Shown: piece by piece, positions 5,278 through 48,063 of the stretch
How the letters are laid out: every line of letters begins with the position of its first letter
Position numbering within the stretch: the stretch's first letter is position 1
Origin: Dehalococcoidia bacterium
GTDB taxonomy: Bacteria > Chloroflexota > Dehalococcoidia > Lucifugimonadales > UBA3495
Direction of reading: 5' to 3'
NCBI GenBank assembly: GCA_022825745.1
Contig: JAJDWF010000113.1
Span: 26,400-90,399 of the forward strand
DNA length: 64,000 nt
The notes under the pieces: model-generated
The model's database searches: none
What the model was told of the DNA's origin: nothing
What the model saw: the letters and a program-made list of their open reading frames with translations, nothing else
Program-made: the position numbers and the translations under genes

Positions 5278-5344
5278 TGGCCTCATTCCCAATCGGCGGA
5301 GTGGAAGGCGTGCTACACCACACGCCCACAAACGGCGGCGGCCA

Positions 5345-5914: not shown

Positions 5915-5942
5915 TCGTCCGCTTTCGCCCAATTATCAGGCG

Positions 5943-6233
5943 TTAATAAGGGTGCCCCGGCGGTGGGACAGTTTGCCACCATACCGCGCATCTGGCGACG
6001 GTATTGGCCGGTAGAGAGGCTTCATGCCCCATTGGTCCCAGTGGGAGACGTAGCAGTCCTTGAGGACGTGTTCGGCGTGGATCTGTGCCGTCGGCCTGCT
6101 CTATTTGCTCTTCGGTATGCTTTGGTTGAAGGCTCTCGCTTCCCACGAACTGCGCGCAGGCTGTGGTGATGCTGAACACTGCCAGGGTAGTTGCGACGTT
6201 GCGGATGGATTGCCGCCCGGCCCAGCATATCAC
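5943..6233 (-). CDS. Possible small secreted protein or lipoprotein
   Basis: Signal-like N-terminus SIRNVATTLAVFSITTAC. Ends 11 nt before the membrane-protein gene. No homology recognised. Confidence 0.25.
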   Translation of the reverse strand: MICWAGRQSIRNVATTLAVFSITTACAQFVGSESLQPKHTEEQIEQADGTDPRRTRPQGLLRLPLGPMGHEASLPANTVARCAVWWQTVPPPGHPY

Positions 6234-6282
6234 GGCAAGCTACCGCAGCGTCCGCGCCCGGCATGGGCCGGCGGCTATGGCG

Positions 6283-7710: not shown

Positions 7711-9234
7711 ATGGCCACCCGCTCTTTCGCCGGCAACGTCAACGCGCCGGACTTCCCTGCCAGCGTCGAATGGATCAACACCGACCGCCCCCTGAGCATG
7801 GCCGACCTGCGCGGCAAGGTGGTGATCCTCGACTTCTGGACCTACTGTTGAATCAACTGCGTGCATGTGTTTCCGCAGTTGCGGAAAATGGAAGAGAAGT
7901 ATCCGGACGAGCTGGTGGTCATAGGCGTCCATTCCGCCAAGTTCCCCAACGAGAAGTACGCCGACAACGTGCTGCTGGCCGCCCAGCGCTACGAGCTGAA
8001 GCACCCCATCGTCAACGACGCCGAGTTCGAAGTGTGGCGGCAGTACGCCTGCCGCGCCTGGCCCACGCTGATGTTCGTTGACCCGGAGGGCAAGGTAATC
8101 GGCAAGCACGAGGGCGAGCTGCCCTACGAGGCGTTCGACGACCTGCTGGGCCGCATGATCGCCGAGTTCGACGAGCAGGGCATCATCGACCGCCGCGACC
8201 TGGGCCTCACGCCGGAGGCGGTGGAGGAAACCGCGCTGGCCTTTCCCGGCAAAGCGCTGGCCGACGGCCCGGGCAACCGCCTGTTCATCGCCGACACCAA
8301 CCACAACCGCATCGTCATCACCGATCTGGACGGCCAGGTGCAGGCCGTCGTCGGTTCCGGCGCGGAGGACTTCGCGGACGGCGACTACGCCACCGCCGCC
8401 TTCAACCACCCCCAGGGCATGGAACTGGTGGGCGATGTGCTGTACGTGGCCGACACCGAGAACCACGCCATCCGCCGGGTGGACCTCGCCGCCGGCATGG
8501 TGGACACCATCGCCGGCACCGGTCAGCAGGGACACGACCGCCGCGCCTCCGGCCCGGGCGCTCAGATCGCGCTCAGCAGCCCGTGGGACCTGGCGCACCA
8601 CGACGGCATCCTGTACATCGCCATGGCCGGCACCCACCAGCTATGGCGGCTGTCGCTGGCCGACGGCACGGTCTGTCCCCACGCCGGCACCGGCGGCGAG
8701 AACATCGACAACGGCCCGCTGGCCCAGGCGACGCTGGCCCAGCCCAGCGGCATCGTGGTCGGCAGTGACCGGGGCGGCAGTCCCATCCTCTACTTCGCCG
8801 ACTCCGAGACCAGCAGCGTGCGCAGCGCCGGCATCGACCCGGTCACCGGCCGCGTGGCGACGCTGGTGGGCATCGACCTGTTCGCGTTCGGCGACCGCGA
8901 CGGCGTGGAGCACAACGTCCGGTTGCAGCACCCCATCGGCATCGAGTGGCACGAAGGCGAGTTGTTCATCGCCGACACCTACAACCACAAGATCAAGAAG
9001 GTGCTGCCGCTTACCCGCTCGGTGCAGACCGTCCTGGGTTCCGGCGCCATGGGCCTGCACGACGGCGCCGGCAAGCTGGCGACCTTCAGCGAACCCAGCG
9101 GCCTGAGCTTCGCCGTCTTTGAGAACGGCCGGCAGCCCCTGCTCTACATCGCCGACACCAACAATCACGCCATCCGCGTCGCCGACTTCGAGGCCGACGA
9201 GGTGCGGACGCTGGAGATTACCGGCTTGTCTTGA
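7711..9234 (+). CDS. Thioredoxin-like + NHL-repeat protein (NHLRC2-like) with in-frame TGA at 7849-7851 (candidate selenocysteine, or a pseudogene)
   Basis: SD CTGGAGG precedes ATG 7711. Reads [59 protein letters not shown].., in the same frame as ORF 7861..9234. NHL repeats follow ([55 protein letters not shown]). Confidence 0.75.
7855..7880 (+). promoter_or_regulatory. Hairpin 4 nt downstream of the in-frame TGA (candidate bacterial SECIS)
   Basis: AACTGCG (7855-7861) pairs with CGCAGTT (7874-7880). 7-bp perfect stem with a 12-nt loop TGCATGTGTTTC. Confidence 0.4.
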
Positions 9235-9330
9235 CGCCGTCCGCGCCATCGGGCAACATAAATTCCCGGTGGCGACGCGGCGATGGCCGCGGCCATACCC
9301 GAACGAACTCAGGCCAACCCAGGAGAATAC

Positions 9331-9777
9331 ATGGCAACCCCTACCGTCGATCCCAATTCCGATACCGAATACGCCGTCCGCGCCGACGACAGCATCACGC
9401 TGATGGCCAGCAAGATCATCCGCGACGTGCTGGTAACCCGCGGCGAACCGATCCGGCGCGCCCAACTGTGGCAGGCGGTGGAACTGGCGATGGGGGAACG
9501 CAAACCCGACGTTGACGGAGTGCTGAAACGCGACTGGTTCAACAACCAGGGCACCGGCCCCGGCCGCTGGGAACTGACCGAGATTGCCGAGGCGCGGGAA
9601 TCGCCGTTCACCGATGCCAGCGGCGCGGTGAATCTGGCGGTGGTGGTGGAGTACCTGAGGGCCTGCCGAGGGGAGGCTCCCTACATCGGCGACGTGGGGG
9701 AGTTCATCAAAATCTGCCAGCCGGCCGTCGAGCTGGACGCGGCCTGGCTCGTGCCGGGCAGCCGCGCGATTGGCTAG
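9331..9777 (+). CDS. Hypothetical protein
   Basis: SD AGGAGA is 4-5 nt upstream of ATG 9331. 148 aa. No motif recognised. Confidence 0.5.
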   Translation: MATPTVDPNSDTEYAVRADDSITLMASKIIRDVLVTRGEPIRRAQLWQAVELAMGERKPDVDGVLKRDWFNNQGTGPGRWELTEIAEARESPFTDASGAVNLAVVVEYLRACRGEAPYIGDVGEFIKICQPAVELDAAWLVPGSRAIG

Positions 9778-10652
9778 TAGCCGTCCTGGCCGCCGCCCAG
9801 GCTGACCGACAGCACGCGCTCCCGGCCGGCCAGGTCGGGCTCCACGGTGATTTCGGCGTCCGGGAAAGTCTCTGACGCCAGGCGTCGCGCCTCGTCCATC
9901 TGCTCCGGGTCCATTTCCAGCAGGATGACCCCGTGGGCCTTCAACTTGTCCGGCTCGCCGGCCTGCGCGATCAGGCGGCGGATGTGGTCCAGCCCGTCCG
10001 CCCCGCCGTCCAGGGCCGCCACCGGCTCCCACTGGACTTCCGGCTGCAAAGTGGGGATGCGTTCGGTGGGCAGGTAGGGCAGGTTGGCCGCGATCACGTC
10101 CACCGGCTCCGGCAGCGATTCCAGCAGGTCGCCTTTCACCAGCGTGACCCGGTCGGCCACGTTGTGCATCCGCACGTTGTACGCCGCCACGTCCAGCGTC
10201 GGGTCAAAAGCGTCGCTGGCGTAGATGCGCGCGGCGGGCAGGTGGATGGCCAGGTTGACCGCGATGGCGCCGGTTCCCGTGCCCACGTCGGCGATGACCA
10301 GCTCGCGGCTCTCCATGCCCATCAGCGCCATGAACAGCGCGTGTTCCACCAGCGTTTCCGTCTCGGGCCGCGGGATCAGCACGTCCGGGTTGACCAGCAG
10401 GTTGACGCCGTAGAACTCCCGATAGTTCAGGATGTAGGCCAGCGGCTCGCGGGTTAGCCGTCGTTCCACGATGGCGGCCAGCTGCGCCTCCTGCTGCGCG
10501 GCCACCTGGGATTCCTGCTCGGCGAAAATGGCCTGGCGCGGCATCCGCATCACGTCCATCACCATCACCTCCGCCTCCAGCCGGGCATCGGGGATGCCGG
10601 CCGACTCCAGCGTGCGGTGGGTGGCCTGGATTACGTCGCGCAGGCTGGGCAT
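9774..10652 (-). CDS. prmC: Release-factor glutamine N5-methyltransferase
   Basis: HemK/PrmC layout with SAM motif IADVGTGTGAI and NLPY (NPPY variant). Immediately downstream of prfA. Confidence 0.85.
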   Translation of the reverse strand: MPSLRDVIQATHRTLESAGIPDARLEAEVMVMDVMRMPRQAIFAEQESQVAAQQEAQLAAIVERRLTREPLAYILNYREFYGVNLLVNPDVLIPRPETETLVEHALFMALMGMESRELVIADVGTGTGAIAVNLAIHLPAARIYASDAFDPTLDVAAYNVRMHNVADRVTLVKGDLLESLPEPVDVIAANLPYLPTERIPTLQPEVQWEPVAALDGGADGLDHIRRLIAQAGEPDKLKAHGVILLEMDPEQMDEARRLASETFPDAEITVEPDLAGRERVLSVSLGGGQDGY

Positions 10653-31120: not shown

Positions 31121-31308
31121 TGCATATCCTCCGTTCGTTGGTTACCGTTCCGCGCGCGGCGGCTCGGCCGTATATTCGTATAGCAACAGCATTATACCCG
31201 CAATGCGACTCTAATCGGCTTATCGTAGCGTCTCAGATTGAAATCCACGGGTTCGAACGCGGCTTACAAGAGCCGCGCTTGAGTTCGCTGTATCCACCCT
31301 TAGCGGCT

Positions 31309-31515
31309 CTACGTCGGGGTCCAAAATTTCTCAACTTCAATCAGAGTGCAACCCCGGTCTTTAGCTATGAGCTTGCACGATTCGATGCAGGCACGGTAAT
31401 CTGCCTCACTCAATCCCCCAATACTCCTGAATGACCGCAAGCCTTTAATGATATGCGGGGATCCACGGAACTCGATCCGTAGGTTTGGGCCTACCCGGCC
31501 CGCTAGACCCCCCAC
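31309..31515 (-). CDS. Hypothetical small protein or gene fragment
   Basis: 68-aa ORF (..GLSEADYRACIESCKLIAKDRGCTLIEVEKFW). No motif recognised. Confidence 0.25.
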   Translation of the reverse strand: MGGLAGRVGPNLRIEFRGSPHIIKGLRSFRSIGGLSEADYRACIESCKLIAKDRGCTLIEVEKFWTPT

Positions 31516-31577
31516 CCAGTAGGGAGTGAGGCCGGGGGAGTTGACATCAGGTCGGAAGCGTCGTGTAGCATGATGAT

Positions 31578-31745
31578 ATGTTTGCCGCAGTCATCACCGC
31601 TATCGGGGCCTCAACCGGGTTTACCGCCGTTCTCCTGTTGGAGCGGATGGCGGGCCACACTGGCTTTGGGTTTCTTGTCTTCTGTGCAGTTGTTGCTCTA
31701 GGCGGACTCGTCGCTTACGCTCTTTCCTTAGCCGGATATCCGTAA
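31578..31745 (+). CDS. Possible 55-aa two-TM peptide
   Basis: MFAAVITAIGASTGFTAVLLLERMAGHTGFGFLVFCAVVALGGLVAYALSLAGYP. TTGACA at 31541-31546 lies upstream. Mutually exclusive with the antisense ORF 31621..31839. Confidence 0.25.
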   Translation: MFAAVITAIGASTGFTAVLLLERMAGHTGFGFLVFCAVVALGGLVAYALSLAGYP

Positions 31746-31839
31746 TGAACCACATCATCAGGGAGCCCAAGCCGAGGGCTGCAATGCCCAAGGCTTGTAA
31801 GGCGGTGATGGTAACGGGATAATCTAGCCACACCTTCAA
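31621..31839 (-). CDS. Possible 72-aa single-TM protein
   Basis: ITALQALGIAALGLGSLMMWFI followed by a basic tail. Overlaps the plus-strand small ORF. Confidence 0.25.
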   Translation of the reverse strand: MKVWLDYPVTITALQALGIAALGLGSLMMWFITDIRLRKERKRRVRLEQQLHRRQETQSQCGPPSAPTGERR

Positions 31840-31869
31840 TCAACAACGCGGAGGAGACTATAAACCCTG

Positions 31870-32124
31870 CTACACGAGGCCGGCAGCGAGCGCGGCACGG
31901 GTCGCCTCCCCGTCGCCACAATATAAATCAGCGCACCGAGCGACAAGCTCCAGTGCGCTGTGAGTTCCTGATTGGAGCACGGCGTCCTCCGCGTCCTCGA
32001 ATGTTCTTGGTTGGTCCATCAGGGTCATAGGGACTGCCCCCAGTTGGGCGCGTTGGGTATAGTCTGGTGGTTGCGCCCACTCGTCCATAATAGTACATCT
32101 GCACCAAATGGTGCAATTGATCAA
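31870..32124 (-). CDS. Hypothetical small protein (possible fourth gene of the cassette)
   Basis: TTG start overlaps the upstream TGA (agTTGAtc). Alternative ATG at 32088. No motif recognised. Confidence 0.3.
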   Translation of the reverse strand: MINCTIWCRCTIMDEWAQPPDYTQRAQLGAVPMTLMDQPRTFEDAEDAVLQSGTHSALELVARCADLYCGDGEATRAALAAGLV

Positions 32125-32609
32125 CTCAATTTCCTGGACAGACTGTCCTTCAGTTTTTCTGTAATGATATAACCATCCCTGATCGAACGTTCTAGGACTG
32201 CTTTGACCTTTGGTGCTGAGTAGCGTTCTACATCACATAGGTCGATTGATTGAACCAGTTCGAAAATGTCGTTTGCTGTCAAATTCACAATATCGTGATG
32301 GAGGTCATTGGCCCCATGGTGTGGCGTCCCCCCGGGGGACTGGACCGCCTGTAGATTCATTTTACTAAGCAGGTCGGCCTCGATGACCGTATAATCAAAA
32401 TTAGAGAGATTCTTTCGGCCAGCGGCCAACCCAGCCACGACTTGCTGAATCTCATCTTCAGAATCGACCAAGTACACGGAAAGCTTATTAGATTTTGTGT
32501 CAAAATCGCCGAGAGCATCGCCTTGCCGGCTTGATGCTAGCCCTCCGGCCCACGAGGGATTGGACCAACGGCCTCGGCGCACCATCCTGAGGAACCCCGA
32601 CACCGGCAC
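32121..32609 (-). CDS. Hypothetical protein (cassette gene 3, 162 aa)
   Basis: GTG start overlaps the stop of gene 2 by 1 nt (TAGTG). ..DALGDFDTKSNKLSVYLVDSEDEIQQVVAGLAAG..GANDLHHDIVNLT.. No family recognised. Confidence 0.55.
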   Translation of the reverse strand: MPVSGFLRMVRRGRWSNPSWAGGLASSRQGDALGDFDTKSNKLSVYLVDSEDEIQQVVAGLAAGRKNLSNFDYTVIEADLLSKMNLQAVQSPGGTPHHGANDLHHDIVNLTANDIFELVQSIDLCDVERYSAPKVKAVLERSIRDGYIITEKLKDSLSRKLS

Positions 32610-33349
32610 TACCCATTACCACTAAATTGGTCGATGACCAATTTCAAGCCATCTCTTACCCACTCCTCGGCCTCCGAAGCATGGGCCGTTTTCAAAGCTG
32701 GTAGCACGGACGGGTCATCCAAGAATGATAGACCAAGACCAGCAGCATCCCGGATTCTGCTATCTGACGATTTGAGACTGTCCGTAAGCACGCGCAGACG
32801 CCTCTCACGAGAAGGTTCGTGTTCAATCAGCCCGAATTGCCGCAGAAGTTCCTCGCCTGTTTCGTTCTCGTTTTCCATCCGCAACAGAACGCGCTCCCAG
32901 GCAGCAACAGCCACCGGGCCGTAACTCACGACGGATTCATGGACGCGCGTTGCGAACTCGGAGTCCATGCCGTCCTCAAATCTTTCGTTTTCAGCATCGC
33001 GAACGAACAGCACAAACCGCCCTGCTAGTTCGTTTTCACACAGCAGTTCCTGTTCAATGCTATCAGCGGTGGAATTTCCCACAGGCTGGTCTAGCATGCG
33101 ATAAGTGCTGGAGGGGTCAGCGACAGCAGGCAGTATCTCTTTACCCATACGGGCAATAGCCCACGCATCCCATAGTGCAACACCGTCTTCAGACCACAAT
33201 TGCTCTGGGTCATCCGCGTAATCCGGGTTTGTTGATGCCGGAGGCACGAATCGTCCGCGTATGACTTCACCTCCAAGCCAGAAGTACCCCTGACGTAGCG
33301 CAGTCATATCAAACGCAGCAGAGATTGTCGATGTAGTGGCAGTGGTCAT
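32609..33349 (-). CDS. Hypothetical protein with C-terminal HEAT-like repeat (cassette gene 2, 246 aa)
   Basis: ATGA overlap with gene 1. C-terminal SSDSRIRDAAGLGLSFLDDPSVLPALKTA resembles a PBS-lyase/HEAT repeat. Confidence 0.6.
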   Translation of the reverse strand: MTTATTSTISAAFDMTALRQGYFWLGGEVIRGRFVPPASTNPDYADDPEQLWSEDGVALWDAWAIARMGKEILPAVADPSSTYRMLDQPVGNSTADSIEQELLCENELAGRFVLFVRDAENERFEDGMDSEFATRVHESVVSYGPVAVAAWERVLLRMENENETGEELLRQFGLIEHEPSRERRLRVLTDSLKSSDSRIRDAAGLGLSFLDDPSVLPALKTAHASEAEEWVRDGLKLVIDQFSGNG

Positions 33350-34128
33350 GCTACGTCCCCCTCGTGAGCTATCTCCAAGGCCATTTCCATGAGCTCGGAA
33401 AGGACATCTTTGGCTTTGTCAGCCGGGATGCTTCTGCTTGCATCAACATGGGCGGTGTTGATGTCTAGTTGCAAACTCGCAGCGAATTGTATCCTGCTCC
33501 CTGATGCCACGGGACTGCCGTCCCCTACTCGACCAAATGAAACGGTTTGCCCTTGTGCTATTGACCAAGTGGCCAATCGATTGATCCATATCCCGGAAGA
33601 AACTTGACTCCGGCGTCTTCGATTAACTTGGAATGAGAAGTCTGGAGCATCAAGGCCTTCAAATTGGAATCTTGGGAGCGTGAGACTAAGCTTTGCGTAT
33701 GCCTCGGAAAGGCTAGGCGCGGGGGCGAGGAGCAATGCACCAACCGCTAGACGATTGATGCTCGGAGTCATGTTGATCAAGAGTTGGCTGGCTGGGGACA
33801 ATTCCCGCATAGCCTGCTGGTACCCCCTTTCAAACTTGTTCCATACGTCAGTACTTCCTGGCGGCGGAATATTGACCGGTTGCGCGAGGATATCAGTCCG
33901 TTCGGCGCGAATGTTCATAGTCCATTGCGTATCGCCAATTTGTCCTCCAACCACCCTGACACCCTCAAGATTCTTGGTATCATCCTGTTGAGGGGTGGAG
34001 CCGAAAGCTTCCGTCCAATAACCGTGGATTTTATCCCCCAAGTCGATGGCGGAATGGAATATGGTAATGCGTAGTTGTTGAGCCAGCCATTCGATATTCG
34101 GCTTAGCCCTTTCAGGTGTAGTTGTCAT
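33346..34128 (-). CDS. Hypothetical protein (cassette gene 1, 260 aa)
   Basis: Long ORF in the low-GC islet. No catalytic or binding motif recognised. Confidence 0.6.
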   Translation of the reverse strand: MTTTPERAKPNIEWLAQQLRITIFHSAIDLGDKIHGYWTEAFGSTPQQDDTKNLEGVRVVGGQIGDTQWTMNIRAERTDILAQPVNIPPPGSTDVWNKFERGYQQAMRELSPASQLLINMTPSINRLAVGALLLAPAPSLSEAYAKLSLTLPRFQFEGLDAPDFSFQVNRRRRSQVSSGIWINRLATWSIAQGQTVSFGRVGDGSPVASGSRIQFAASLQLDINTAHVDASRSIPADKAKDVLSELMEMALEIAHEGDVA

Positions 34129-34196
34129 AATCTTAATTCATTGATGACAGTGTCCATACGCCGGCTCAAGCCAAGCGGCTACTTGCTTGCCGCGAT

Positions 34197-34226
34197 GCTA
34201 TAGCCTATGAGCGCATATCCTGTCAA
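34197..34226 (-). promoter_or_regulatory. Sigma70-like promoter TTGACA-N18-TATAGC for the cassette
   Basis: Minus-strand TTGACA (34226-34221) and TATAGC (34202-34197), about 70 nt upstream of ATG 34128. Confidence 0.35.
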
Positions 34227-34308
34227 CCCTTTGTCCCCATTGTAACACCCACCGTGCCTAGGGCGATAATGGGATGATCCTATTCCATTTGCTTTGACAA
34301 GATATGTC

Positions 34309-34620
34309 TCACCCGTTCCGGAAGAGACTTTCCAGCGTTTGAGTCTCGTCGCCTTCCACCAGTGCCCATTCGTCGCTGTCAAGGAAACTTCCCTCGAACT
34401 TCCAGTCCGGCTTTCCGCCAGGCAGGTTTTCGCTGGCATAAAGGCAGCAGGCGCGTATGTCCTCAACGGACAGTTGGGGATAGTGCTTTATGATGTCGCC
34501 CTCTTTTGTTCCGCCAGCCAACAGGTAGAGGACGAAGGAAACGGAGATTCGAGTTCCCTTCACCCGAGGCTTGCCCATCAGAAAATCCCGGTCGGATACG
34601 ATGCGCTCCATCAAGTCCAT
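34309..34620 (-). CDS. DUF433-domain protein (antitoxin-like) with atypical C-terminal extension
   Basis: SD GGGAGG precedes the start. DFLMGKPRVKGTRISVSFVLYLLAGGTKEGDIIKHYPQLSVEDIRACCLYA is the DUF433 pattern. About 35 extra acidic residues at the C-terminus. Confidence 0.7.
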   Translation of the reverse strand: MDLMERIVSDRDFLMGKPRVKGTRISVSFVLYLLAGGTKEGDIIKHYPQLSVEDIRACCLYASENLPGGKPDWKFEGSFLDSDEWALVEGDETQTLESLFRNG

Positions 34621-34748
34621 AATGCAACCTCCCAGCCCTGCCGGAACGGGGCTGTGCGTACCTCATATCCTAACACGCTATCAATTCCACAAGGTTCCAC
34701 CGGCTTTGACCGCGCCTGAATACCCTGGCGGGCTAAAGCCACCGCCCG

Positions 34749-36008
34749 CTACGGACTTATAACCAACGCCGAATCAACCGCCGCGGCGGCATCCCCCAGC
34801 GGCGCAGCAATCAGCTCGGCCAGAGACGTGGCGATGGTAGCGCACTCAGCGGACATATTGACCACCAGGTCCACCGGCGTATCGGCGGGAATGCCGGCCT
34901 TTTGCAACCCAACCGCCGGATCCCGCCAGGTTCCACCACCGTCCGCCCCCAGTATGACAACGGCCCGGCCGGACGCCGCAATCCCCGCGAGGTCGTCGAT
35001 CCGCTCCACCGACCCGCAAACGGATTCCAGCGGCGAAAGGCCACGCCGTTCCAGCGCGAGCCGGTAGAATCCGGGCGCCGGTATCAACGAAACAGTGCCT
35101 ACGGATTCCTCAAGGTCCGACAATAGCGACGGCATCGACTCGGCAGGATCGCCCAGCGTAACCACCATCGACCACAGGCCGGCCCGTATGTCCCGCACCA
35201 GCCGGTTCACCAACTCGGCGCGGTTGTCCGCGTTCAGCGTCAATTCCACCGAGCGGATCCAGCGTCGCGCCACCGCCAGCGCGGCCGGCGACCCGATGAC
35301 GTAATCGGCGTTGGCGAGCATTTCCCGCGTCGGCATCGGAACGGACGCCGGGTCGCCCGTGCCCAGGCCGGCTACGGTCACCGCTCGTTCCGCCGAGCGG
35401 AACGCCGCCACGAACCTGCGGGTTTCCACCACCTGCCGGGCGTGGTTGCCCTCGTGTCCCGAGGTGCGTTCGATCAGGTCCAGCAGCGACAGCGCCGGGT
35501 AGTTGTTCTCGGGATTGTACGGCGTGGCCGGCAGGTCCAACTGCGCCGGCGACAGGCCGGTTATCAACGCGCGGAACCGCTGGTAGTTAGCCTCCAGGCG
35601 GGCCACGTCGGCGGCGATGCGGTCCTCCCGGCCATCGAACGGCGGCAGCATCTCCCGCTCGCCCGAGGCAATCTCTTCCAGCGCCTGCACAAAATTCTCG
35701 GTCAGCAAATGCTGCATCACCTCCCACACCGACCAGCGCGAACCCAGGAACGCCTCCGCCTCGTCCACGCCGTCCAGCGCCGCCAGCAGCGCGGCGTGGC
35801 CGTCATCCAGCCGCCGCAGGGCGCGCTGCTGCCGCTCGGTTGGGGAAAGGACTTCGTTCTGCACGTCATCGGGCACACCGTGGGAAACCATGAAAATTAC
35901 CTGCCGGAGTAGGTTCGTTGATTCAGCCGGAATATTATTGCACACGGCAGCCGCTCGCTGAGCCGAACGCAATCGGTTATCATTCAATATGGTCTCCCTC
36001 AACGACAC
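34749..36008 (-). CDS. DinB-like domain fused to a tetrapyrrole (CbiE/CobL-type) methylase-like domain
   Basis: N-terminal WSVWEVMQHLL..SGHEGNHARQV (DinB_2-like). C-terminal VTVAGLGTGDP..ADYVIG..VVTLGDP..LIPAPG. The start may be ATG 35891 instead of GTG 36008, which would overlap the divergent gene. Confidence 0.6.
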   Translation of the reverse strand: MSLRETILNDNRLRSAQRAAAVCNNIPAESTNLLRQVIFMVSHGVPDDVQNEVLSPTERQQRALRRLDDGHAALLAALDGVDEAEAFLGSRWSVWEVMQHLLTENFVQALEEIASGEREMLPPFDGREDRIAADVARLEANYQRFRALITGLSPAQLDLPATPYNPENNYPALSLLDLIERTSGHEGNHARQVVETRRFVAAFRSAERAVTVAGLGTGDPASVPMPTREMLANADYVIGSPAALAVARRWIRSVELTLNADNRAELVNRLVRDIRAGLWSMVVTLGDPAESMPSLLSDLEESVGTVSLIPAPGFYRLALERRGLSPLESVCGSVERIDDLAGIAASGRAVVILGADGGGTWRDPAVGLQKAGIPADTPVDLVVNMSAECATIATSLAELIAAPLGDAAAAVDSALVISP

Positions 36009-36786
36009 CTATAGTTCCGGCGTGCGGCCCGGGCAAACCCTGTCCGCGCGCCGGGTGCAACGCGAGTTGGACCGGCTCCTCGAATTGGCGGAGTCGGGCG
36101 TCGCCGCGTCAACCCTGCACGTGCCGTCCTCCGGCGCCCACGACGGCGTTACCATCGCGGCGTTGGCCAGGCACCGGGACGGCCCCTCGTGGATTGACGC
36201 GCTGGAACGCGCCAGCAACCAGGCGCTGCGCTCGCCGACGGGCGTGGCTGCTTTCCGGGTCGGGAACGCCGGCATCGCCATATTGCCGCCCTTTCCCATG
36301 GACGCCACGAGCCTGGACGTAGGCATCAACGACCTGCCGCTGCGCGCGCTGCTGGCGACCCGTTTCACCGTGGGCGTCGCGCTGGTGCGGCTGGGCCGTT
36401 ACGCCGTCGCGGTGTATGAGGGGCAGCAGTTGGCGGTCTCGAAAACCGACACTCGCTACGTGAAGAGCAAGCACCACGCCGGCGGTACGTCCCAGCAGAG
36501 GTTCCGGCGCGTCCGGGAAAACCAGATTCACCGGCTGTACGTCGAGGCGTCGGACGTGCTGGAACGGCAGTGGCGGCCCTGGCTCGACCGGCTGGACTAC
36601 GTCGCGCTGGGCGGAGAGGCCGCCACCGTCAACGGATTCGTCAAAGAGTGCCCCATGCTCGCCCGGCTGTCCTCCATCACCTTGCCGCGCCGCCTGGACG
36701 TGCGCGAACCCAACCGCGCCGCGCTGGACCAGGTGGGCGCGTTGCTCTACCAGTGCCGCGCCTACCCGCTGCGGTGGGACGACTGA
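35989..36786 (+). CDS. Vms1/ANKZF1-like (VLRF1-family) peptidyl-tRNA hydrolase
   Basis: 265 aa. eRF1-like core with KSKHHAGGTSQQRFRRVRENQ (GG-x-SQxRF loop). Confidence 0.65.
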   Translation: MVSLNDTYSSGVRPGQTLSARRVQRELDRLLELAESGVAASTLHVPSSGAHDGVTIAALARHRDGPSWIDALERASNQALRSPTGVAAFRVGNAGIAILPPFPMDATSLDVGINDLPLRALLATRFTVGVALVRLGRYAVAVYEGQQLAVSKTDTRYVKSKHHAGGTSQQRFRRVRENQIHRLYVEASDVLERQWRPWLDRLDYVALGGEAATVNGFVKECPMLARLSSITLPRRLDVREPNRAALDQVGALLYQCRAYPLRWDD

Positions 36787-36817
36787 CCAACACCCGCCAA
36801 ATCCGCCGCTCCCCCAA

Positions 36818-36826
36818 TGCTATAAT
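36818..36826 (+). promoter_or_regulatory. Extended -10 TGcTATAAT, 7 nt upstream of the mutS2 ATG (leaderless-type arrangement)
   Basis: tgctataat ttcgccc ATG. No SD fits between the -10 and the start codon. Confidence 0.45.
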
Positions 36827-36833
36827 TTCGCCC

Positions 36834-39284
36834 ATGCAGCAGGCGGACGAACAGCCCATCCCTTCCGATGCAGAATCCGGCGGCAGCTTCCGGCGCGCGC
36901 TGGGGCTGCTGGAATTCGACGAAATACGCCGGCAACTGTCCGCTGCCACCCGCACCGCCGTCGGCGCGGAGTCCGCCGCCGAACTCACCCCCTCCGCCGA
37001 CCCGCGCGACGTCGCCGTGCGTCAGCAGGAAACCGCCGAGGCGCGCCGCCTGCTCGACACCGCCACTGCCCTGGAAGCGGGGCCATCCGCCGACCTGCGC
37101 CCCGCCGTCCATCGCGCCCTGCTGGGCGGCGTCCTGAGCGGCGAGGAACTGCACAACATCGGAACGCTGGCCGCCGCCGCCCGCTGGAATCGCAACGCCC
37201 TGTCCCACCGGGAAGACCTGCCCATCCTGGCCGCCGTTACCCAGAACCTGCCCGACCTGCCCGATCTCGAAAGCGCAGTCAACCGCGCCATCGGTCCCGC
37301 CGGTGAAGTGCTGGACAACGCATCGCCCGAGCTTTCCCGCCTGCGCCGGGAGTCGCGCTCATCCTACTCCGCCCTCAACGACGTGATGCAGCGCACGCTG
37401 CGCCGCTACCAGCGTTCCGGCATCGCCCAGGAGGACATCGTAACCGAGCGCAACGGGCGCATGGTGCTGCTGGTCAAGACCGACTTCAAGGGCAAGGCCC
37501 CCGGCATCGTCCACGACGTATCCGACAGCGGCGCCACCGTGTTCATCGAACCCATGCCGGCCATCGACCTGGGCAACCGCTGGCGCGAGACTCGCTTGGC
37601 CGAGCAGCGCGAGGAGGAACGGGTGCTGCGCCAACTGTCCTCCCTGGTGGGCCGTTACGCCGAGGACATCAACCTGATGGCGCACCTGCTGGGCCGCCTG
37701 GATCTGGCCGTGGCCAAGGGCCGCTACGCCGCCGGCATGAGGGCGGTGCCGCCCAGCCTGCCGGAACCCGGCGCGCCGCGCCGGCTGCGGCTGACGGGCG
37801 CCCGCCACCCGCTGCTCACCGGCGACGTGGTGCCCACCACCATCAGCATCGACGCCGACCATCCGGTGCTGCTCGTCACCGGCCCCAACGCCGGCGGCAA
37901 GACCGTGGCCCTCAAGACCGTCGGCCTGCTGGCCATGATGGCCCACGCCGGCCTCCAGATCCCGGCCAACGAGGCCGACCTGCCCCTGTTTGACGGCATC
38001 TACGCCGACATCGGCGACCAGCAGAGCATCTTCGAGTCTCTCTCCACGTTCAGCAGCCACATCCGCAACATCGAGCGTATTCTGGACGTGGTCACGCCGC
38101 GCTCGCTGGTGCTGATCGACGAACTGGGTTCGGCCACCGACCCTGAAGAAGGTTCGGCCCTGGCCATCGCCCTGCTGGCGCATCTGCGGGACTGCGGCGC
38201 GATGGTGGTGGCGACCACGCACCACCGCAACGTCGCCCGCCTGGCCCAGGAAGAGCCGGGCATGGTCAACGCCAGCGTTGACCTCAATCCCCGCACGCTG
38301 GAACCGACGTACCGCCTGACTCACGGCGTGCCGGGCCGCAGCTACGCCCTGACCATAGCCGCCCGCCTGGGGTTGCCCGAGACCGTAATCGCCGATGCGC
38401 AGACCCACCTGGAGCCGTCCCACGTGCAGACCGACCGGCTGTTGCAGGAATTGCAGGAGGAACGGCTCACCGTGTCCGAACTGCGCCAGCAGGCCGAGCA
38501 GGCGCTCGCCGACGCCCGCCGGCATGAGGCGGAAATCGCCGAACGGCTCGAAGCGGTGGAGGACACCAAGGCCCAATTGGTGGAAGATGCCCGTCGCGAG
38601 CTTGCCGAGGAAATCGCGGAAGTCGCCGGCCGCATCCGCCAGGCCGAGCGTTCCTTGCGGCGGGAGCAGGATCGCCAGGACGCTGTCAGCCGGAACGCCC
38701 AACGCCCGGACGTCGATTCGCAATCGGACGTCGATTTGCAGGCGGAACGCGAGCGGTTGGTCGAGGCCCAGCGCGAGGTGGTGTCGCCGGAGTGGGCGCC
38801 GATTCCCGTGGAGCGTCCGCCCTGGTACCACGACCTGCGTGTCGGCGACCGCGTGTACATCCGTGGCGTGTCCCGACCGGTGGAGGTGGTCACGCCGCCC
38901 GACGAGCAGCAGGAAATCGAGGTCGTCATCGGCAGCATGCGCGCCCGGCTGCCCGTGTACCAGTTGGACCGGGCGGCCGACCGCGTCCATCCCGCCGCTG
39001 AGCAGGCCGGCGTCGTCTATCGGCGCCCGGAGGCCAAGCGCACGCTCAGCCCCGAGGTCAACCTGCACGGCTACCGCGTTGACGAGGCCCTGAACGTCAT
39101 CGACTCCCTGCTGGACGACGCGGCCCTGGAGGGCATGACCTCGCTGAAAATCGTCCACGGCAAGGGCACCGGCGCGCTGCGCCGCGCCATCCGCGAATAC
39201 CTCACCGGCCACCCGCTCGTGGCAACCACCGAGCCAGGCGAAGGCGGCTCAGCCGCCGGCGTAACGGTGGTGCAACTGCGCTGA
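36834..39284 (+). CDS. mutS2: Endonuclease MutS2 (MutS ATPase + C-terminal Smr domain)
   Basis: Walker A TGPNAGGKT and LIDELGSATDP. C-terminal Smr LHGYRVDEAL..KIVHGKGTGALR. Confidence 0.9.
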   Translation: MQQADEQPIPSDAESGGSFRRALGLLEFDEIRRQLSAATRTAVGAESAAELTPSADPRDVAVRQQETAEARRLLDTATALEAGPSADLRPAVHRALLGGVLSGEELHNIGTLAAAARWNRNALSHREDLPILAAVTQNLPDLPDLESAVNRAIGPAGEVLDNASPELSRLRRESRSSYSALNDVMQRTLRRYQRSGIAQEDIVTERNGRMVLLVKTDFKGKAPGIVHDVSDSGATVFIEPMPAIDLGNRWRETRLAEQREEERVLRQLSSLVGRYAEDINLMAHLLGRLDLAVAKGRYAAGMRAVPPSLPEPGAPRRLRLTGARHPLLTGDVVPTTISIDADHPVLLVTGPNAGGKTVALKTVGLLAMMAHAGLQIPANEADLPLFDGIYADIGDQQSIFESLSTFSSHIRNIERILDVVTPRSLVLIDELGSATDPEEGSALAIALLAHLRDCGAMVVATTHHRNVARLAQEEPGMVNASVDLNPRTLEPTYRLTHGVPGRSYALTIAARLGLPETVIADAQTHLEPSHVQTDRLLQELQEERLTVSELRQQAEQALADARRHEAEIAERLEAVEDTKAQLVEDARRELAEEIAEVAGRIRQAERSLRREQDRQDAVSRNAQRPDVDSQSDVDLQAERERLVEAQREVVSPEWAPIPVERPPWYHDLRVGDRVYIRGVSRPVEVVTPPDEQQEIEVVIGSMRARLPVYQLDRAADRVHPAAEQAGVVYRRPEAKRTLSPEVNLHGYRVDEALNVIDSLLDDAALEGMTSLKIVHGKGTGALRRAIREYLTGHPLVATTEPGEGGSAAGVTVVQLR

Positions 39285-44071: not shown

Positions 44072-45001
44072 ATGGCAAAAGTAGGATTTATTGGCCTGGG
44101 CACCATGGGCGCCAGCATGGCGTACAACTGCCTGAACGGCGGCAACGACATGGTGGTCCATGACATCCGCCGCGAAGCCGCTACCCAGCACCTGGAGGCT
44201 GGCGCTACGTGGGCTGACACACCCCGCGAGGTCGCCGAGTCCACCGACGTGGTGTTCACCTCGCTGCCGGGCCCGGTGGAAGTGGAGGCCGTTTCGCTGG
44301 GCGAGGACGGTATCATGTCCGGGATGTCCGGCGGCAAAGCTTATTTCGACCTCAGCACCAGTTCGCCCACGCTGATCCGGCAGATTCACGACCGGGTCGC
44401 CCCTATGGGCATCAACGTGCTGGACGCCCCCGTAAGCGGTGGCCCGGCCGGTGCCGCCAGCGGTCGCCTGGCCATCTGGGTCGGCGGCGACAAGGCCGTG
44501 TTCGACCAGCACAAGGCGGTGCTGGACTCCATCGGCGACGCCGCCTACTACGTGGGCCCCATCGGCAGCGGCGCCGTCGCCAAGCTGGTGCACAACTGCG
44601 CCGGCTACATCGTGCAGACCGCCCTGGCCGAGGTGTTCACCATGGGCATCAAGGCCGGCGTGGACCCGCTGGCCCTCTGGCTCGCCGTCCGCAAGGGCGC
44701 CGGCGGACGCCGGGGCATGTTCGAGGGCCTGGCCCAGCACTTCCTGATCAACGACTACGACCCGCCGGACTTCGCCCTGCGCCTGGCCCGCAAGGACGTT
44801 GATCTGGCGGTGGCCGTGGGCCGCGAGTTCGACGTGCCCATGAAGCTCGCCAACACCACCCTGGCCGAGATGACCGAGGCGCTCAACCGCGGCTGGGCCG
44901 GCCGCGACTCCCGCGTCGCCATGCTGCTCCAACAAGAGCGCGCCGGCATCGAGTTCGAGGTCGACCCGGAAGACATCCGCCGCGCCTTGGAAGCAGAGTA
45001 A
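44072..45001 (+). CDS. NAD(P)-dependent HIBADH-family dehydrogenase (second copy)
   Basis: MAKVGFIGLGTMGASMAYN.. 309 aa. Confidence 0.85.
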   Translation: MAKVGFIGLGTMGASMAYNCLNGGNDMVVHDIRREAATQHLEAGATWADTPREVAESTDVVFTSLPGPVEVEAVSLGEDGIMSGMSGGKAYFDLSTSSPTLIRQIHDRVAPMGINVLDAPVSGGPAGAASGRLAIWVGGDKAVFDQHKAVLDSIGDAAYYVGPIGSGAVAKLVHNCAGYIVQTALAEVFTMGIKAGVDPLALWLAVRKGAGGRRGMFEGLAQHFLINDYDPPDFALRLARKDVDLAVAVGREFDVPMKLANTTLAEMTEALNRGWAGRDSRVAMLLQQERAGIEFEVDPEDIRRALEAE

Positions 45002-45041
45002 GGCGGGTAGGATATACTGGGATCTCTGACGGGGTTCCATC

Positions 45042-46061
45042 ATGGTCGTGCGAGCAAGTGGCATAAATCCGGCAATGCTGCGCTGGGCGCGAGAACGGGC
45101 GGGCTACTCCATTGAGGAAGTGGCCCGCCGGATGAGGGTGCCAGCTGAACGAGTAAAAGGATGGGAGTCGGGTCGGACCTGCCCAACTTGGAGACAAGTA
45201 GAAAGCTTGGCTCAACGGCTTTACCACCGGAGCGCCACGCTGTTCTTCTTGAACCATCCTCCTGAGGAACCCACGATTTACGACGAATTCCCGCAATTGC
45301 CGGCCAGCGTACTGAGCGACCTGCACCCCGATACTCTATACGCGATTCGGCAAGCCAGAGCCCGGCAGCACTATCTAAGGTTGTTGGCGCCGTTTCAAGA
45401 CGCCTCTACCAATCAGGTAATGCTCGACCTGAGGAACCGAGCGTACTCGGGCGATCCGCATTCGTTGGCACGACTGGCCGAACAGTATCTCGACCCAAGC
45501 CCTGACCAGGAAACAGATCATGCAACCGGCGGAGCGTCCGCCTCTTATTGGCGGAAATGGGTTGAAGGCGCCGGCGCCTGGGTTTTCCTGCGCGGTTTCA
45601 AGCAGGAAGACATAGCAGGGTTTTGCTTGTGGGAATACCGATTTCCAGTTATCTACGTGAACCATGCTTTGTCGCTACCGCGCATGTCCGCCACCATCCT
45701 CAGGCAATTCTCGCACTTGCTTTTCGATTTCAACCACATCGAAAGGACTGACGAAAGTCATTACCTAACTTTCTTGTCTGGCGATGCGCTGGTAGTTGAA
45801 CAGGCGTGCAATGAATTTGCAAAAGAATTGATGGATACGCATGAAAGCGAGGGAAGCCTGACTCCTTCAATTGCCCTACGCAACGGCGGTGGAAACTATT
45901 ATTCAGACCAAGCAATTCGTTTGGGCAAAAAATACTTGCAGGCCGCATTTTTCGCGTTTGACGACGAGCGCATTGACGAAGCCATGCTGTCGTCGGCGCT
46001 TGGAGTGAAAGCCGAACAGATCAACCACCTGGAATCATTCGCGTGGCAGGGTGAGATATAG
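45042..46061 (+). CDS. XRE-type HTH + ImmA/IrrE-like domain protein with degenerate HExxH
   Basis: N-terminal LRWARERAGYSIEEVARRMRV (HTH). ILRQFSHLLFDF sits where the ImmA family has HELGHLL (His to Arg, Glu to Gln). Confidence 0.65.
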   Translation: MVVRASGINPAMLRWARERAGYSIEEVARRMRVPAERVKGWESGRTCPTWRQVESLAQRLYHRSATLFFLNHPPEEPTIYDEFPQLPASVLSDLHPDTLYAIRQARARQHYLRLLAPFQDASTNQVMLDLRNRAYSGDPHSLARLAEQYLDPSPDQETDHATGGASASYWRKWVEGAGAWVFLRGFKQEDIAGFCLWEYRFPVIYVNHALSLPRMSATILRQFSHLLFDFNHIERTDESHYLTFLSGDALVVEQACNEFAKELMDTHESEGSLTPSIALRNGGGNYYSDQAIRLGKKYLQAAFFAFDDERIDEAMLSSALGVKAEQINHLESFAWQGEI

Positions 46062-46062
46062 C

Positions 46063-46560
46063 ATGACGTTGTACGTCTTGGATACCAACACCTTGAGTAC
46101 GATATTTCGCTTTTACTATCAGAATGTGTTCGTAACATTCTGGACGATGTTCGATAATTTGTTGGTGAACAGAGGCGCGATATCGGTTCGGCAGGTACGC
46201 CCGGAACTTGAGCGATGGGGAGGTTCGGATGCTTGGATCCGTCATTTGCTGGCCAATAATCCTGACTTCTTCGCTGACAATACGCTCAATGAGCTTGGCG
46301 CCATGGGCGAGTTTATGAATTCGTCGCCTCTGGCAACGGCGTTAGCAGGGTGGATGCACAATATCGGTCCCGATGAACCGACTGTTGCAGACCCATATTT
46401 GATCGCAAAGGCGATGTTGTCGTCCGATCTGGCAACGGTGGTTACCCAAGAGAGCCCGGCTCGAAACTCGACCTCCCGTATCCCTTATGTCTGCGGGCAG
46501 TTGGGTGTCCCCTGCATCAATCTTGAGCAGATGATGAGCCAACTGGGCTGGCGATTCTAG
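46063..46560 (+). CDS. DUF4411 (PIN-like) family protein
   Basis: MTLYVLDTNTLSTIF.. N-terminal acidic PIN-like motif, ..DPYLIAKAM.., VVTQES. The ATG is 1 nt after the stop of the upstream gene. Confidence 0.65.
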   Translation: MTLYVLDTNTLSTIFRFYYQNVFVTFWTMFDNLLVNRGAISVRQVRPELERWGGSDAWIRHLLANNPDFFADNTLNELGAMGEFMNSSPLATALAGWMHNIGPDEPTVADPYLIAKAMLSSDLATVVTQESPARNSTSRIPYVCGQLGVPCINLEQMMSQLGWRF

Positions 46561-46575
46561 TCCCCAGCCAGCCAA

Positions 46576-48063
46576 CTAATCCGCCGCTGCCGGTTCCCAC
46601 CGCAGCACCGGCCGCCGCGCCGCCGTAGCCTCGTCCAGGCGCGACACGGGCGTGCTATGCGGCGCGTGCTGCACCAGTTCCGGCTCGGTGGTCGCCTCGG
46701 CGTCGATGGCGCGCAGGGCGTCGATAAAAGCGTCCAGCGTCTCCTTGGTCTCCGACTCGGTCGGCTCAATCATCAGCGCTTCATGCACGATTAGCGGGAA
46801 ATACATCGTCGGCGCGTGGAACCCGTAGTCCAGCAGCCGCTTGGCGACCTCCAGCCCGCTGACCCCGCGCTCCCGTTGCCGGTCGGCGGAGAACACCACC
46901 TCGTGCATGCAGGTGCGGTCGTAGGGCAGCGCGTAGATATCCTTCAGCGCGTGCATGATGTAGTTGGCGTTCAGCACCGCGTTGCCGCTGATGGATTGCA
47001 GGCCCGCCGCGCCCAGCGTGCGGATGTACGTGTAGGCCCGCACCAGCACGCCGAAGTTGCCGTGGAACCCGCTGATCTTGCCGATGCTCTCCGCCGGTTC
47101 CGACAGGGTGAACTCGCCGGCCCCGTTCCCCGGATCAACGACGCGCTCCACCACCGGCGCGGCCAGGTAGGGCGCGAGGATCTCGCCGCAGCACACCGGG
47201 CCGGCGCCCGGCCCGCCGCCGCCGTGGGGCGTGCTGAAAGTCTTGTGCAGGTTCAGGTGGCAAACGTCGAAGCCCAGCTCGCCCAGCTTGGCCCGGCCCA
47301 GCAGCGCGTTCATGTTGGCGCCGTCGCCATACACCAGGCCGCCGCACTCATGCACCACCTGGCACACCTCCAGGATGTGGCTGTCGAACAGACCCAAAGT
47401 GCTGGGCAGGGTGATCATCACGCCGGCCAGGTCGTCGCCGGCGATTTCACGCAGGGCCGCCAGGTCGGTATTGCCGTCCGCGTCCGATGGAATCGTCACC
47501 ACGTCGAACCCGGCCATGGCCGCCGACGCTGGGTTGGTGCCGTGGGCGCTATCGGGTATGCCCATCTTGGTGCGTCCCGAATCGCCCCGCGCCAGGTGGT
47601 AGGCCCGCATCATCAGGACGCCGGCCAACTCGCCGTGTGCCCCGGCCAGGGTGGCCAGGCTGGTGGCGGACATGCCGGTCACCTCGGTGAGGAATTCCTG
47701 CAACCGGTACAGCAACTCCAGCGCGCCTTGCGACTGCTCGGCCGGCTGTTGCGGGTGGATGCCGGCGAACCCGGGCAGGAACGCCACCTCGTCGTTGACC
47801 TTGGGGTTGTACTTCATGGTGCACGACCCCAACGGATAGAAGTGGGTGTCGATGCTGAAGTTCAGCTGGCTCAGGGAGGTGAAATACTGCACCACCTCGG
47901 GCTCGGAGACCTCGGGCAGCGGCAGCGAATCCCGCAGATACGCGGCATCCAGTGGGGGCGCGGCCGGCACGTCCAGTTCCGGCGTGATGACGCCCACGCG
48001 GCCGGATACGCTGCGGTCCATGAGCATCCTGGTGGTGTCGCGGTTTCCGCCTTTGTTCAGCAT
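46576..48063 (-). CDS. gcvPB: Glycine dehydrogenase (decarboxylating) subunit 2
   Basis: FYPLGSCTMKYNPK, NLHKTFSTPHGGGGPG. Start uncertain (48063, 48027 or 48117). Confidence 0.9.
   Translation of the reverse strand: MLNKGGNRDTTRMLMDRSVSGRVGVITPELDVPAAPPLDAAYLRDSLPLPEVSEPEVVQYFTSLSQLNFSIDTHFYPLGSCTMKYNPKVNDEVAFLPGFAGIHPQQPAEQSQGALELLYRLQEFLTEVTGMSATSLATLAGAHGELAGVLMMRAYHLARGDSGRTKMGIPDSAHGTNPASAAMAGFDVVTIPSDADGNTDLAALREIAGDDLAGVMITLPSTLGLFDSHILEVCQVVHECGGLVYGDGANMNALLGRAKLGELGFDVCHLNLHKTFSTPHGGGGPGAGPVCCGEILAPYLAAPVVERVVDPGNGAGEFTLSEPAESIGKISGFHGNFGVLVRAYTYIRTLGAAGLQSISGNAVLNANYIMHALKDIYALPYDRTCMHEVVFSADRQRERGVSGLEVAKRLLDYGFHAPTMYFPLIVHEALMIEPTESETKETLDAFIDALRAIDAEATTEPELVQHAPHSTPVSRLDEATAARRPVLRWEPAAAD

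Follow-up and report, generated by a model that had tools for sequence, protein, structure and literature searches.

What does a short low-GC stretch on one Dehalococcoidia contig encode, and do its genes belong together? The DNA in question is 64,000 nucleotides long (contig JAJDWF010000113.1 of assembly GCA_022825745.1, positions 26,400 to 90,399) and is referred to throughout as the window, with position 1 at its first letter. A preliminary description, made from the sequence alone, had noticed three coupled, unrecognisable minus-strand genes and put them forward as a candidate undescribed conflict or defence system. We denote these genes A, B, and C. Comparison with other genomes supports that proposal: the three genes are translationally coupled, are kept together as one unit in different phyla, and move between genomes. 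The reading that we prefer, with somewhat more belief than doubt, is that of a conflict module complete in its three genes and obtained by horizontal transfer; its most likely form is a toxin-antitoxin-like system that acts against phages by abortive infection. A role in genetic conflict, whether defence, addiction, or both, is likely; the case for defence is drawn from association only.

All three genes lie on the minus strand. Genes A (33346-34128; 260 aa) and B (32609-33349; 246 aa) begin with ATG, and gene C (32121-32609; 162 aa) begins with GTG. Their sizes and junctions are exactly as first described: reading of the sequence and comparison of loci place the ATGA that joins the stop of A to the start of B at 33346-33349, and the TAGTG that joins the stop of B to the start of C at 32607-32611, both on the minus strand. 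A Shine-Dalgarno-like sequence, GAGGGGGA (33356-33363, minus strand), falls within the codons for the closing Glu-Gly-Asp of A and precedes the start of B by 7-8 nt. Comparable elements (GGGGGAC, GGAGAC, GGAGAT, GGCGAT, or GGTGAC) precede the ATGA in 12 of the 13 overlapping loci, locus L004 being the one without. Codons of the GGAGA or GGGGA type specify the conserved Gly-Asp at the C-terminus of A in the window (33350-33363) and at 11 other loci; because these codons stand 7-8 nt before B, protein motif and Shine-Dalgarno-like element coincide, and the element may serve as the ribosome-binding site of B. The GTG start of C is the correct one, since the alternative ATG (M9) would drop R8, a residue kept in 154 of 164 family members; the family alignment begins at MP-x-FLR, with R8 upstream of M9, and six of the ten aligned members without R8 are accounted for by alignment gaps.

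Whether homologous trios exist elsewhere had been named in the preliminary description as a check on the proposal, and they proved to be widespread, with the same order and the same coupling. Word-indexed homologue searches (n = 15 for A, down to 28% identity; n = 45 for B; n = 11 for C) showed the A-B-C order and its coupling to be kept at 13 or more independent loci, with identities as low as approximately 26%. Order and overlaps are shared by L001-L004, L010, L013-L018, and L025. Of the 14 loci that have an A-family gene, 13 show the 4-nt overlap between A and B (ATGA, or TTGA in L010), again down to 26% identity; the exception is L007, the upstream gene of which is not demonstrably A. At the junction of B and C, the genes overlap by 1-44 nt or are separated by a gap of at most 6 nt. 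Such recurrent coupling at both junctions far exceeds chance. The phyletic spread of the trio is scattered, covering Dehalococcoidia, Anaerolineae, and Phototrophicaceae (mostly Chloroflexota) and one Alphaproteobacterium; L014 is the alphaproteobacterial locus and L017 the one in Phototrophicaceae. Protein lengths for A, B, and C are 260, 255, and 160 aa in L001; 258, 252, and 160 aa in L002; 270, 254, and 160 aa in L003, from a Dehalococcoidia genome (and on the same contig as L012); 257, 238, and 159 aa in L004-L006; 256, 262, and 167 aa in L018-L020; and 260, 201, and 276 aa in L025.

Several loci depart from this plan. In loci L007 and L008, a gene for a 262-aa protein whose relation to A is unproven stands ahead of a 305-aa B and a 161-aa C. 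In L010, A and a long B (8768-9991; 407 aa) are followed by an unrelated protein of 154 aa (9988-10452) in place of C, for which neither Pfam nor the PHROGs collection gave a match; from the sequences, this replacement looks like an effector swap. A two-gene variant, L027 (4107-5992), begins with a 398-aa protein in which an S-adenosylmethionine (SAM)-methyltransferase domain is joined to the repeat module of B, continues with C fused to DUF4926, and has no A. This one locus suggests that B and C may be able to work without A; the contig of L028 breaks off shortly before B, and an A gene may lie beyond its end. Loci L013, L015, and L016 have a four-gene form, A-B-X-C, to which we return below. 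Two genes that the preliminary description had associated with the cassette fall outside it. The fourth open reading frame (ORF), D (31870-32124, minus strand; 84 aa), exists and does overlap C by TTGA, but it was found only in the window's own species (L011). The neighbouring DUF433 gene (34309-34620) was likewise confirmed (Pfam, 1.8e-18) but is present in L011 and in none of the other trio loci, and no adjacent ORF was recognised as the partner of a toxin-antitoxin pair. Because neither was found in any other trio locus, we rejected D and DUF433 as components of the system.

The foreign character of the cassette is evident in its composition and, more directly, in its absence from relatives. 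The low-GC islet noticed at first is real: the GC content of 32121-34128 is 52.3%, against 66.5% and 67.2% in the flanks, and the cassette is the lowest of 248 sliding 2-kb windows. At third codon positions (GC3) the cassette genes have 52-54%, compared with 80-92% in adjacent genes. A scan of metagenome contigs with the flanking DinB_2/TP_methylase protein (34749-36008) identified two relatives, L030 (74% identity) and L031 (70% identity), that share the gene order MutS2, baeRF, DinB_2/TP_methylase, NAD-binding dehydrogenase, enoyl-CoA hydratase, and PPIase. In both, only 90-110 nt separate the DinB_2/TP_methylase gene from the NAD-binding dehydrogenase gene, leaving an empty site. Since the same flanking genes are directly joined in L030 and L031, the islet is an insertion and was horizontally acquired, as had been suspected. 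Alignment of the junctions places the insertion at approximately 31210-34735 (the ends are approximate; about 3.5 kb, GC 53.6%). Within it are the DUF433 gene, the trio, and a tail of 0.9 kb that has small ORFs and is not conserved. The empty site in two relatives, the shift in GC and GC3, and the scattered phyletic spread together argue for mobility. We found no integrase, no tRNA (there is none in the window), and no terminal direct or inverted repeats of note for the insertion, and the islet gave no Rfam match to a non-coding RNA.

Of the three proteins, C shows the strongest conservation. When its profile was searched against 1.84 billion representative sequences, 2,451 clusters (at 50% identity) matched with E ≤ 1e-3 and 1,414 with E ≤ 1e-10; nearly all of the best 150 matches listed are stand-alone proteins of approximately 160-170 aa. 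Among 164 aligned members, H104 is present in every one, R129, S44, and D72 in 161 each, W15 in 160, N101 in 158, D31 in 157, D35 in 155, and R8, as given above, in 154; T38, Y73, and T95 are also conserved. Near-invariant polar residues of this kind form the pattern that would be expected of an active site. The initial observation that no enzymatic motif could be recognised in the cassette held for motifs of known kind but not for C as a whole, which carries an enzyme-like set of invariant polar residues. A phage protein family of unknown function, phrog_10743, matches the C of the window (6e-8; residues 6-161 against positions 4-164 of 178 in the profile), as well as the C of an Acinetobacter prophage (2e-85) and of a Klebsiella plasmid (2e-24). 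None of 70 diverse members matched Pfam, NCBIfam, or PADLOC above noise, and the family's members are named "hypothetical protein" wherever the source names them, except for one partial entry, "Rha family regulator". An AlphaFold2 (AF2) model of C (pLDDT 80.6) is an alpha/beta domain for which Foldseek found no significant match in the PDB; a fold search of BFVD gave an uncharacterised giant-virus protein as the only confident viral match. The additional gene X of the four-gene loci, situated between B and C (L013:11262-11627, L015:7898-8239, L016:11589-11954), encodes 113-121 aa and is a truncated paralogue of C without R8, the G-x-T...N loop, and the C-terminal part that holds R129. X could be a built-in decoy or inhibitor.

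Protein B is divided in two. Its N-terminal 92 residues (33074-33349, minus strand) are hypervariable and rich in Ser, Thr, Pro, and Ala, and are a candidate specificity, sensor, or labile segment; small and polar residues (S, T, P, A, G, Q, and N) make up 49% of it. Over the same 26 sequences, mean pairwise identity is 25% in the first 92 residues and 65% in the remainder. That remainder (32609-33073, minus strand) is a module of approximately 150 aa with HEAT-type repeats (ETGEELLRQLG ... RIRDAAGLGLSFLDDPSALPAL). A HEAT-like repeat at this end of the protein had been proposed at the outset, and profile searches agree: Pfam HEAT_2 (PF13646) matches the B of the window at 8.5e-5 and 23.2 bits, under the cut-off of 27.7, and orthologues exceed that cut-off (41.2 bits in L004, 35.7 bits in L018), which places the family as a whole within HEAT_2. 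The profile of B also matches designed alphaRep and HEAT chains among PDB sequences at 2.7e-5. Against PADLOC, B gave only sub-threshold HEAT-ARM or OloA noise. In L027 it is the variable N-terminus that the SAM-methyltransferase domain replaces.

Protein A is defined by the motifs W-x3-LR-x-T-x-F, RLA-x-G, DF-x-F-x-INRRR-x-S, INRL-x-x-WS, and L-x-LDINT and by the C-terminal GD; Arg and Asn are frequent at its conserved positions, as in INRRR-x-S, INRL, and LDINT. The AF2 model (pLDDT 85, pTM 0.84) consists of two similar halves, each a sheet plus helix. The top Foldseek matches in the PDB are TATA-binding protein (TBP) chains, 7o4i_O and 7edx_P (probability 0.90 and 0.57), followed by START/PYL, EspG, and Med18/20 folds. 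The TBP matches reach TM scores of only 0.22-0.31, with E-values of 1.6e-3 or weaker. The model suggests a two-lobed alpha/beta pseudo-dimer that is TBP-like; because none of the fold matches of A exceeds a TM score of 0.31, only the general fold class is indicated. Pfam, NCBIfam, PADLOC, PHROGs, and PDB sequences held no match to A. We also considered TIGR04255, from an N-terminal L-R-x-x-F and a C-terminal LD-x-D motif in A that we took to be characteristic of that family. NCBIfam does not support the assignment, as 19 diverse A-type proteins gave no match to it even at E ≤ 10, and a literature search found no paper that mentions TIGR04255.

How might three such proteins work together? A plausible division of labour, reconstructed from conservation and domain content, is as follows. 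C would be the effector enzyme or toxin, with an active site formed from R8, D31, D35, S44, D72, N101, H104, and R129; it is the most conserved component, carries the invariant polar set, and is exchanged for another protein in L010, and X is a dead paralogue of it, all of which point to this role. The conserved HEAT-repeat module of B would bind and restrain C, while its fast-evolving, S/T/P-rich N-terminus would act as a specificity element that recognises an invader protein, or as a labile, degradable segment; the assignment of B as binder and sensor follows from the repeats, from the contrast between 25% and 65% identity, and from the exchange of the N-terminus for a methyltransferase. A would be an accessory that loads, stabilises, or senses, perhaps as a chaperone for B or as a binder of nucleic acid or a ligand. 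Finally, infection or the loss of B would free C, and either the cell or the phage would be stopped.

The chromosomal surroundings of the trio include known defence genes in some places. L002 lies near SIR2_2-DUF4020, fragments of a type ISP restriction-modification system, and insertion sequence (IS) elements. L004-L006 adjoin ResIII-GmrSD_N-N6_N4_Mtase-UvrD; L007 neighbours a type ISP restriction-modification system and FRG-TPR; and L010 neighbours type I hsdRSM, PDDEXK, and resolvase genes. The restriction-modification genes near the trio are of type I, type ISP, and type III-like kinds. Transposases and a large serine recombinase surround L001, and a small resolvase adjoins L028 and L029; small serine recombinases have been reported to mark defence loci (PMC13552941). 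The arrangement at L002 resembles a composite defence island: a gene for a 1,029-aa SIR2_2 protein and then a DUF4020 gene (L002:339-3428) are separated from the trio, which begins 4.5 kb downstream, by IS110 and type ISP fragments. In L013, L015, and L016 the cassette is directly downstream, on the same strand, of a lone gene encoding 591-612 aa (L013:7734-9509, L015:4469-6244, L016:8017-9855) that contains an HK97-type major-capsid domain (Pfam Phage_capsid, 1.1e-14; PDB capsid chains, approximately 1e-6) and has an N-terminus that resembles an HK97-type prohead protease by eye. A RecD2 helicase gene is on the other side of these cassettes; no further phage genes were recognised within 10 kb, where most neighbours are unannotated.

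Three-gene cassettes of similar size and the same order, with a C-family gene as the last, are also carried by plasmids and prophages of Gammaproteobacteria. The small plasmids (4.4-7.5 kb, of clinical and environmental origin) are L021 (NZ_OW968434), L032 (NZ_CP083817), and L033 (NZ_CP114612). On the 4.4-kb ColE1-type Klebsiella plasmid, L021, the cassette encodes 229, 199, and 173 aa, the third belonging to the C family (hhalign 98.7%); apart from it, only genes for replication control and short ORFs are annotated there. A 5-kb Enterobacter plasmid has two cassette genes annotated, for a protein of 213 aa that resembles the Klebsiella B (4e-17) and for a C of 183 aa. A 7.5-kb MOBQ plasmid of Acinetobacter carries a C-ending cassette as its sole annotated cargo besides replication and mobilisation genes and short ORFs. 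These statements about cargo hold within the PLSDB gene table, which is incomplete. A further C-ending cassette adjoins RelB/YafQ on a 134-kb plasmid of A. lwoffii, and others occupy the right end, after the lysis genes, of the Acinetobacter prophages Ab105-1phi, AbTJ, and MD-2021a. Proteins of the Acinetobacter baumannii prophages occur on at least 1,000 contigs, and those of the Klebsiella and Enterobacter small plasmids on hundreds. The homology of the third genes to C is solid.

Plasmid carriage of this kind brings in the main rival to the preferred reading, namely that the cassette is a tripartite addiction module of the toxin-antitoxin-chaperone type, with C as the toxin, B as an antitoxin with a disordered extension, and A as a dedicated chaperone, and that it would serve mainly to stabilise the mobile elements that carry it rather than to block phages. 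To be the only annotated cargo on small ColE1 and MOBQ plasmids, or to sit beside RelB/YafQ on a larger one, would suit such a module. So would the order of B before C and the overlap of their stop and start codons, an arrangement known from type II toxin-antitoxin pairs, the fast-evolving S/T/P-rich N-terminus of B, and the presence of EspG secretion chaperones among the fold matches of A. High-copy ColE1-type plasmids, however, have little need for addiction, and the chromosomal copies adjoin restriction-modification and SIR2 genes; A has no similarity to SecB, and the cassette has no DNA-binding domain by which it could regulate itself. We regard addiction in place of defence as rather unlikely. 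It is compatible with most of the data and does not exclude defence; because many toxin-antitoxin modules also defend, it is not cleanly separable from a toxin-antitoxin-like anti-phage system.

The same plasmids and prophages would also be expected if the cassette were a weapon of mobile elements or a counter-defence module, serving for example anti-restriction or competition between elements, with which plasmids and prophages would overcome host immunity. Frequent adjacency to restriction-modification systems fits this idea, as does the capacity that HEAT-type binders could have to sequester a host defence protein. On the other side, chromosomal copies occur in non-mobile housekeeping contexts, one of them syntenic across genera, and an enzyme-like C together with the effector swap of L010 suits an effector-based system better than an inhibitor. 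We judge counter-defence to be improbable.

A fair assessment of the toxin-antitoxin-like anti-phage reading must include the observations that weigh against it. As raw counts, restriction-modification or SIR2 genes occur within 8 kb in only about four of approximately 13 independent chromosomal contexts; about five more have transposase, recombinase, resolvase, or capsid genes, and about four are housekeeping. Plain housekeeping genes surround the trio in L003, L017, and L018-L020, and in L013, L015, and L016 the locus is syntenic across genera and therefore looks vertically inherited. The link to the gammaproteobacterial cassettes is uneven: their second genes match B weakly (hhalign E = 0.005, compared with approximately 0.6 for mismatched controls), and their first genes share with A a size, a position, and a D-x-N-T motif (plus the C-terminal Gly-Asp in Klebsiella), with hidden Markov model and hhalign tests of homology negative. 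The IMG/VR viral contigs hold no close relatives of A or C. As for the chemistry of C, the weak fold matches are recurrently to the ADP-ribosyltransferase fold (8tg3, TMq 0.35; 6d0i, 0.30; 4z9d, 0.28), and these ADP-ribosyltransferase or Tpt1-type matches have E > 0.4, probability ≤ 0.23, and TM ≤ 0.35. A match to anthrax lethal factor (E = 0.13) was lost with a deeper profile of C, and that lead was dropped.

Housekeeping neighbours (L003, L017, L018-L020) and synteny kept in three Chloroflexota genomes are the points that would favour a cellular regulatory or stress module outside genetic conflict, mobile by happenstance. Such a module sits poorly with an insertion of foreign composition and patchy distribution, with carriage by plasmids and prophages, with the hypervariable N-terminus of B, and with the swapping of modules, and we consider it the least probable of the readings discussed here. 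Nor did the search for a housekeeping pathway, which the preliminary description had named as a way to refute a defence role, produce a confident match in Pfam, NCBIfam, PADLOC, PDB sequences, or Foldseek (for the structures of A and C). Returning to the conflict module, a bolder version of it takes the A-B-C trio as the first example of an unnamed anti-phage system that would be very widespread. Its effector, of the phrog_10743 family (at least 2,451 clusters at 50% identity), would be an enzyme with a new fold or chemistry, under the control of a HEAT-repeat partner with a diversifying sensor tail and of a TBP-like protein, and the family would also be at work on plasmids of clinical Klebsiella and Enterobacter and in prophages of Acinetobacter baumannii. 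We put this forward tentatively, as a possibility that we doubt somewhat more than we believe.

Should the cassette prove to act in defence or addiction, the prokaryotic immune repertoire would gain a whole group of new protein families; C by itself accounts for thousands of clusters, and Pfam, NCBIfam, and PADLOC have no model for it. Clinical bacteria very commonly carry versions of the cassette, which could thus shape the outcomes of phage therapy and the ecology of plasmids. An invariant R/D/S/N/H/R set in a 160-aa protein without assignable fold may signal a new effector chemistry, of which there is a substantial chance. The ColE1-type plasmid of Klebsiella is a ready, E. coli-compatible test object, and the complete genomes of E. 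coli gave no DNA-level match to its cassette.

Other features of the window are of lesser bearing. Upstream of A, on the minus strand (34197-34247), the sequence contains two sets of candidate promoter elements: TGTTACAAT (34247-34239), which is an extended -10-like element, and the TTGACA-N18-TATAGC string (34226-34197) noticed at first. Promoter-like matches are no commoner in this region than in shuffled sequences (5 found, compared with 2.5 ± 1.5 expected), and no conserved operator or promoter element is shared upstream by L001, L002, L003, and the window, the DNA upstream of A not being conserved. The tail of the insertion (31210-32120) holds only small ORFs, of 84 (D), 72, 55, and 68 aa. 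The 72-aa ORF (31621-31839, minus strand) and the 55-aa ORF on the opposite strand both look hydrophobic by eye; the search for D covered L011, and that for the 72-aa and 68-aa ORFs covered L011, L030, and L031 and showed both to be absent from the latter two. Beyond the insertion, the flanking gene at 34749-36008 (minus strand) encodes a 419-aa fusion of DinB_2 to a tetrapyrrole-methylase-like domain, with 70-74% identity in the two relatives. A release-factor-like gene (baeRF_family10/acVLRF1; 35989-36786, plus strand) is immediately upstream of MutS2/Smr (36570-39284, plus strand); this pairing also occurs in L030 and L031 and could be one of ribosome rescue. Two other stretches of lowered GC (57-58% in 2-kb windows) are present in the 64-kb window, at approximately 4000-6250 and 44500-47000.

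How does the cassette compare with systems already described? The search for known systems used PADLOC-DB v2.0.0 and covered A-D of the window, the 70 diverse C members, and the trio proteins of L004, L007, L018, and L021; no component matched the model of any described or candidate system. Scans of the window and diverse homologues against Pfam, NCBIfam, PADLOC, and PHROGs gave only HEAT_2 for B and phrog_10743 for C, and full-text literature searches found no description of the A-B-C trio. With neither a PADLOC model nor a published description to match them, A, B, and C are new families.

The ADP-ribosyltransferase fold (Tpt1/KptA, ParT (RES), pertussis-like PltA) recurs among the best PDB matches of C, and in our own reading C has, like the R-S-E-type transferases, a conserved Arg on predicted strand 1 and a Ser on strand 2. 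Unlike these enzymes, C has no ExE, H-Y-E, or R-H-R-R motif and no profile similarity to them. With a weak fold match, no profile match, and no motif, C was not assigned to the ADP-ribosyltransferase/Tpt1 group, which we keep as a lead only. Among three-gene systems, Rst_3HP, composed of three hypothetical proteins, is encoded in a P2 hotspot and protects against P1 (Rousset et al. 2022, PMC9122126). Like the cassette, it consists of three genes for proteins without clear predicted domains; it is a defence system found in prophages of Enterobacteria, and its protein sizes differ (Hp2, 359 aa; Hp3, 227 aa; Table S2). Hp2 and Hp3 scored ≤ 0.5 bits against the profiles of A, B, and C and gave no BLASTP match to the cassette proteins, and on this comparison of Hp2 and Hp3 identity with Rst_3HP was rejected.

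Closer in organisation are the toxin-antitoxin-chaperone (TAC) systems, HigBA-SecB and CmdTAC (PD-T4-9). CmdTAC established that such trios can be phage defences. The cassette resembles them in having three small co-translated genes on mobile DNA, and in combining a conserved enzyme-like component with a partner that has a variable, probably disordered extension and with an accessory the size of a chaperone. It differs in gene order and in lacking sequence or profile similarity to the PADLOC models: A is modelled as TBP/EspG-like and not as SecB, B is a 250-aa HEAT protein and not a small DNA-binding antitoxin, and C falls in no recognisable toxin family. Pfam, NCBIfam, and PADLOC gave no toxin, antitoxin, or SecB match for any cassette protein.

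A second parallel concerns the repeats of B. In DSR2, the HEAT region binds a phage structural protein and controls the effector. Among HEAT-containing defence proteins, DSR2 (a SIR2 effector fused to a HEAT-repeat sensor), AbiK, and Abi-P2 (PMC11263360, PMC9508834) share HEAT-type repeats with B, but each of them is one large polypeptide that includes a known catalytic domain (SIR2 or polymerase), whereas the HEAT module of the cassette is approximately 150 aa and belongs to a separate protein paired with the 160-aa C; the homology is that of a generic repeat only. TAC systems, including CmdTAC, and DSR2 are functional analogies only. If, as seems likely, the cassette works through a restrained effector on mobile DNA, its logic is of a kind already known.

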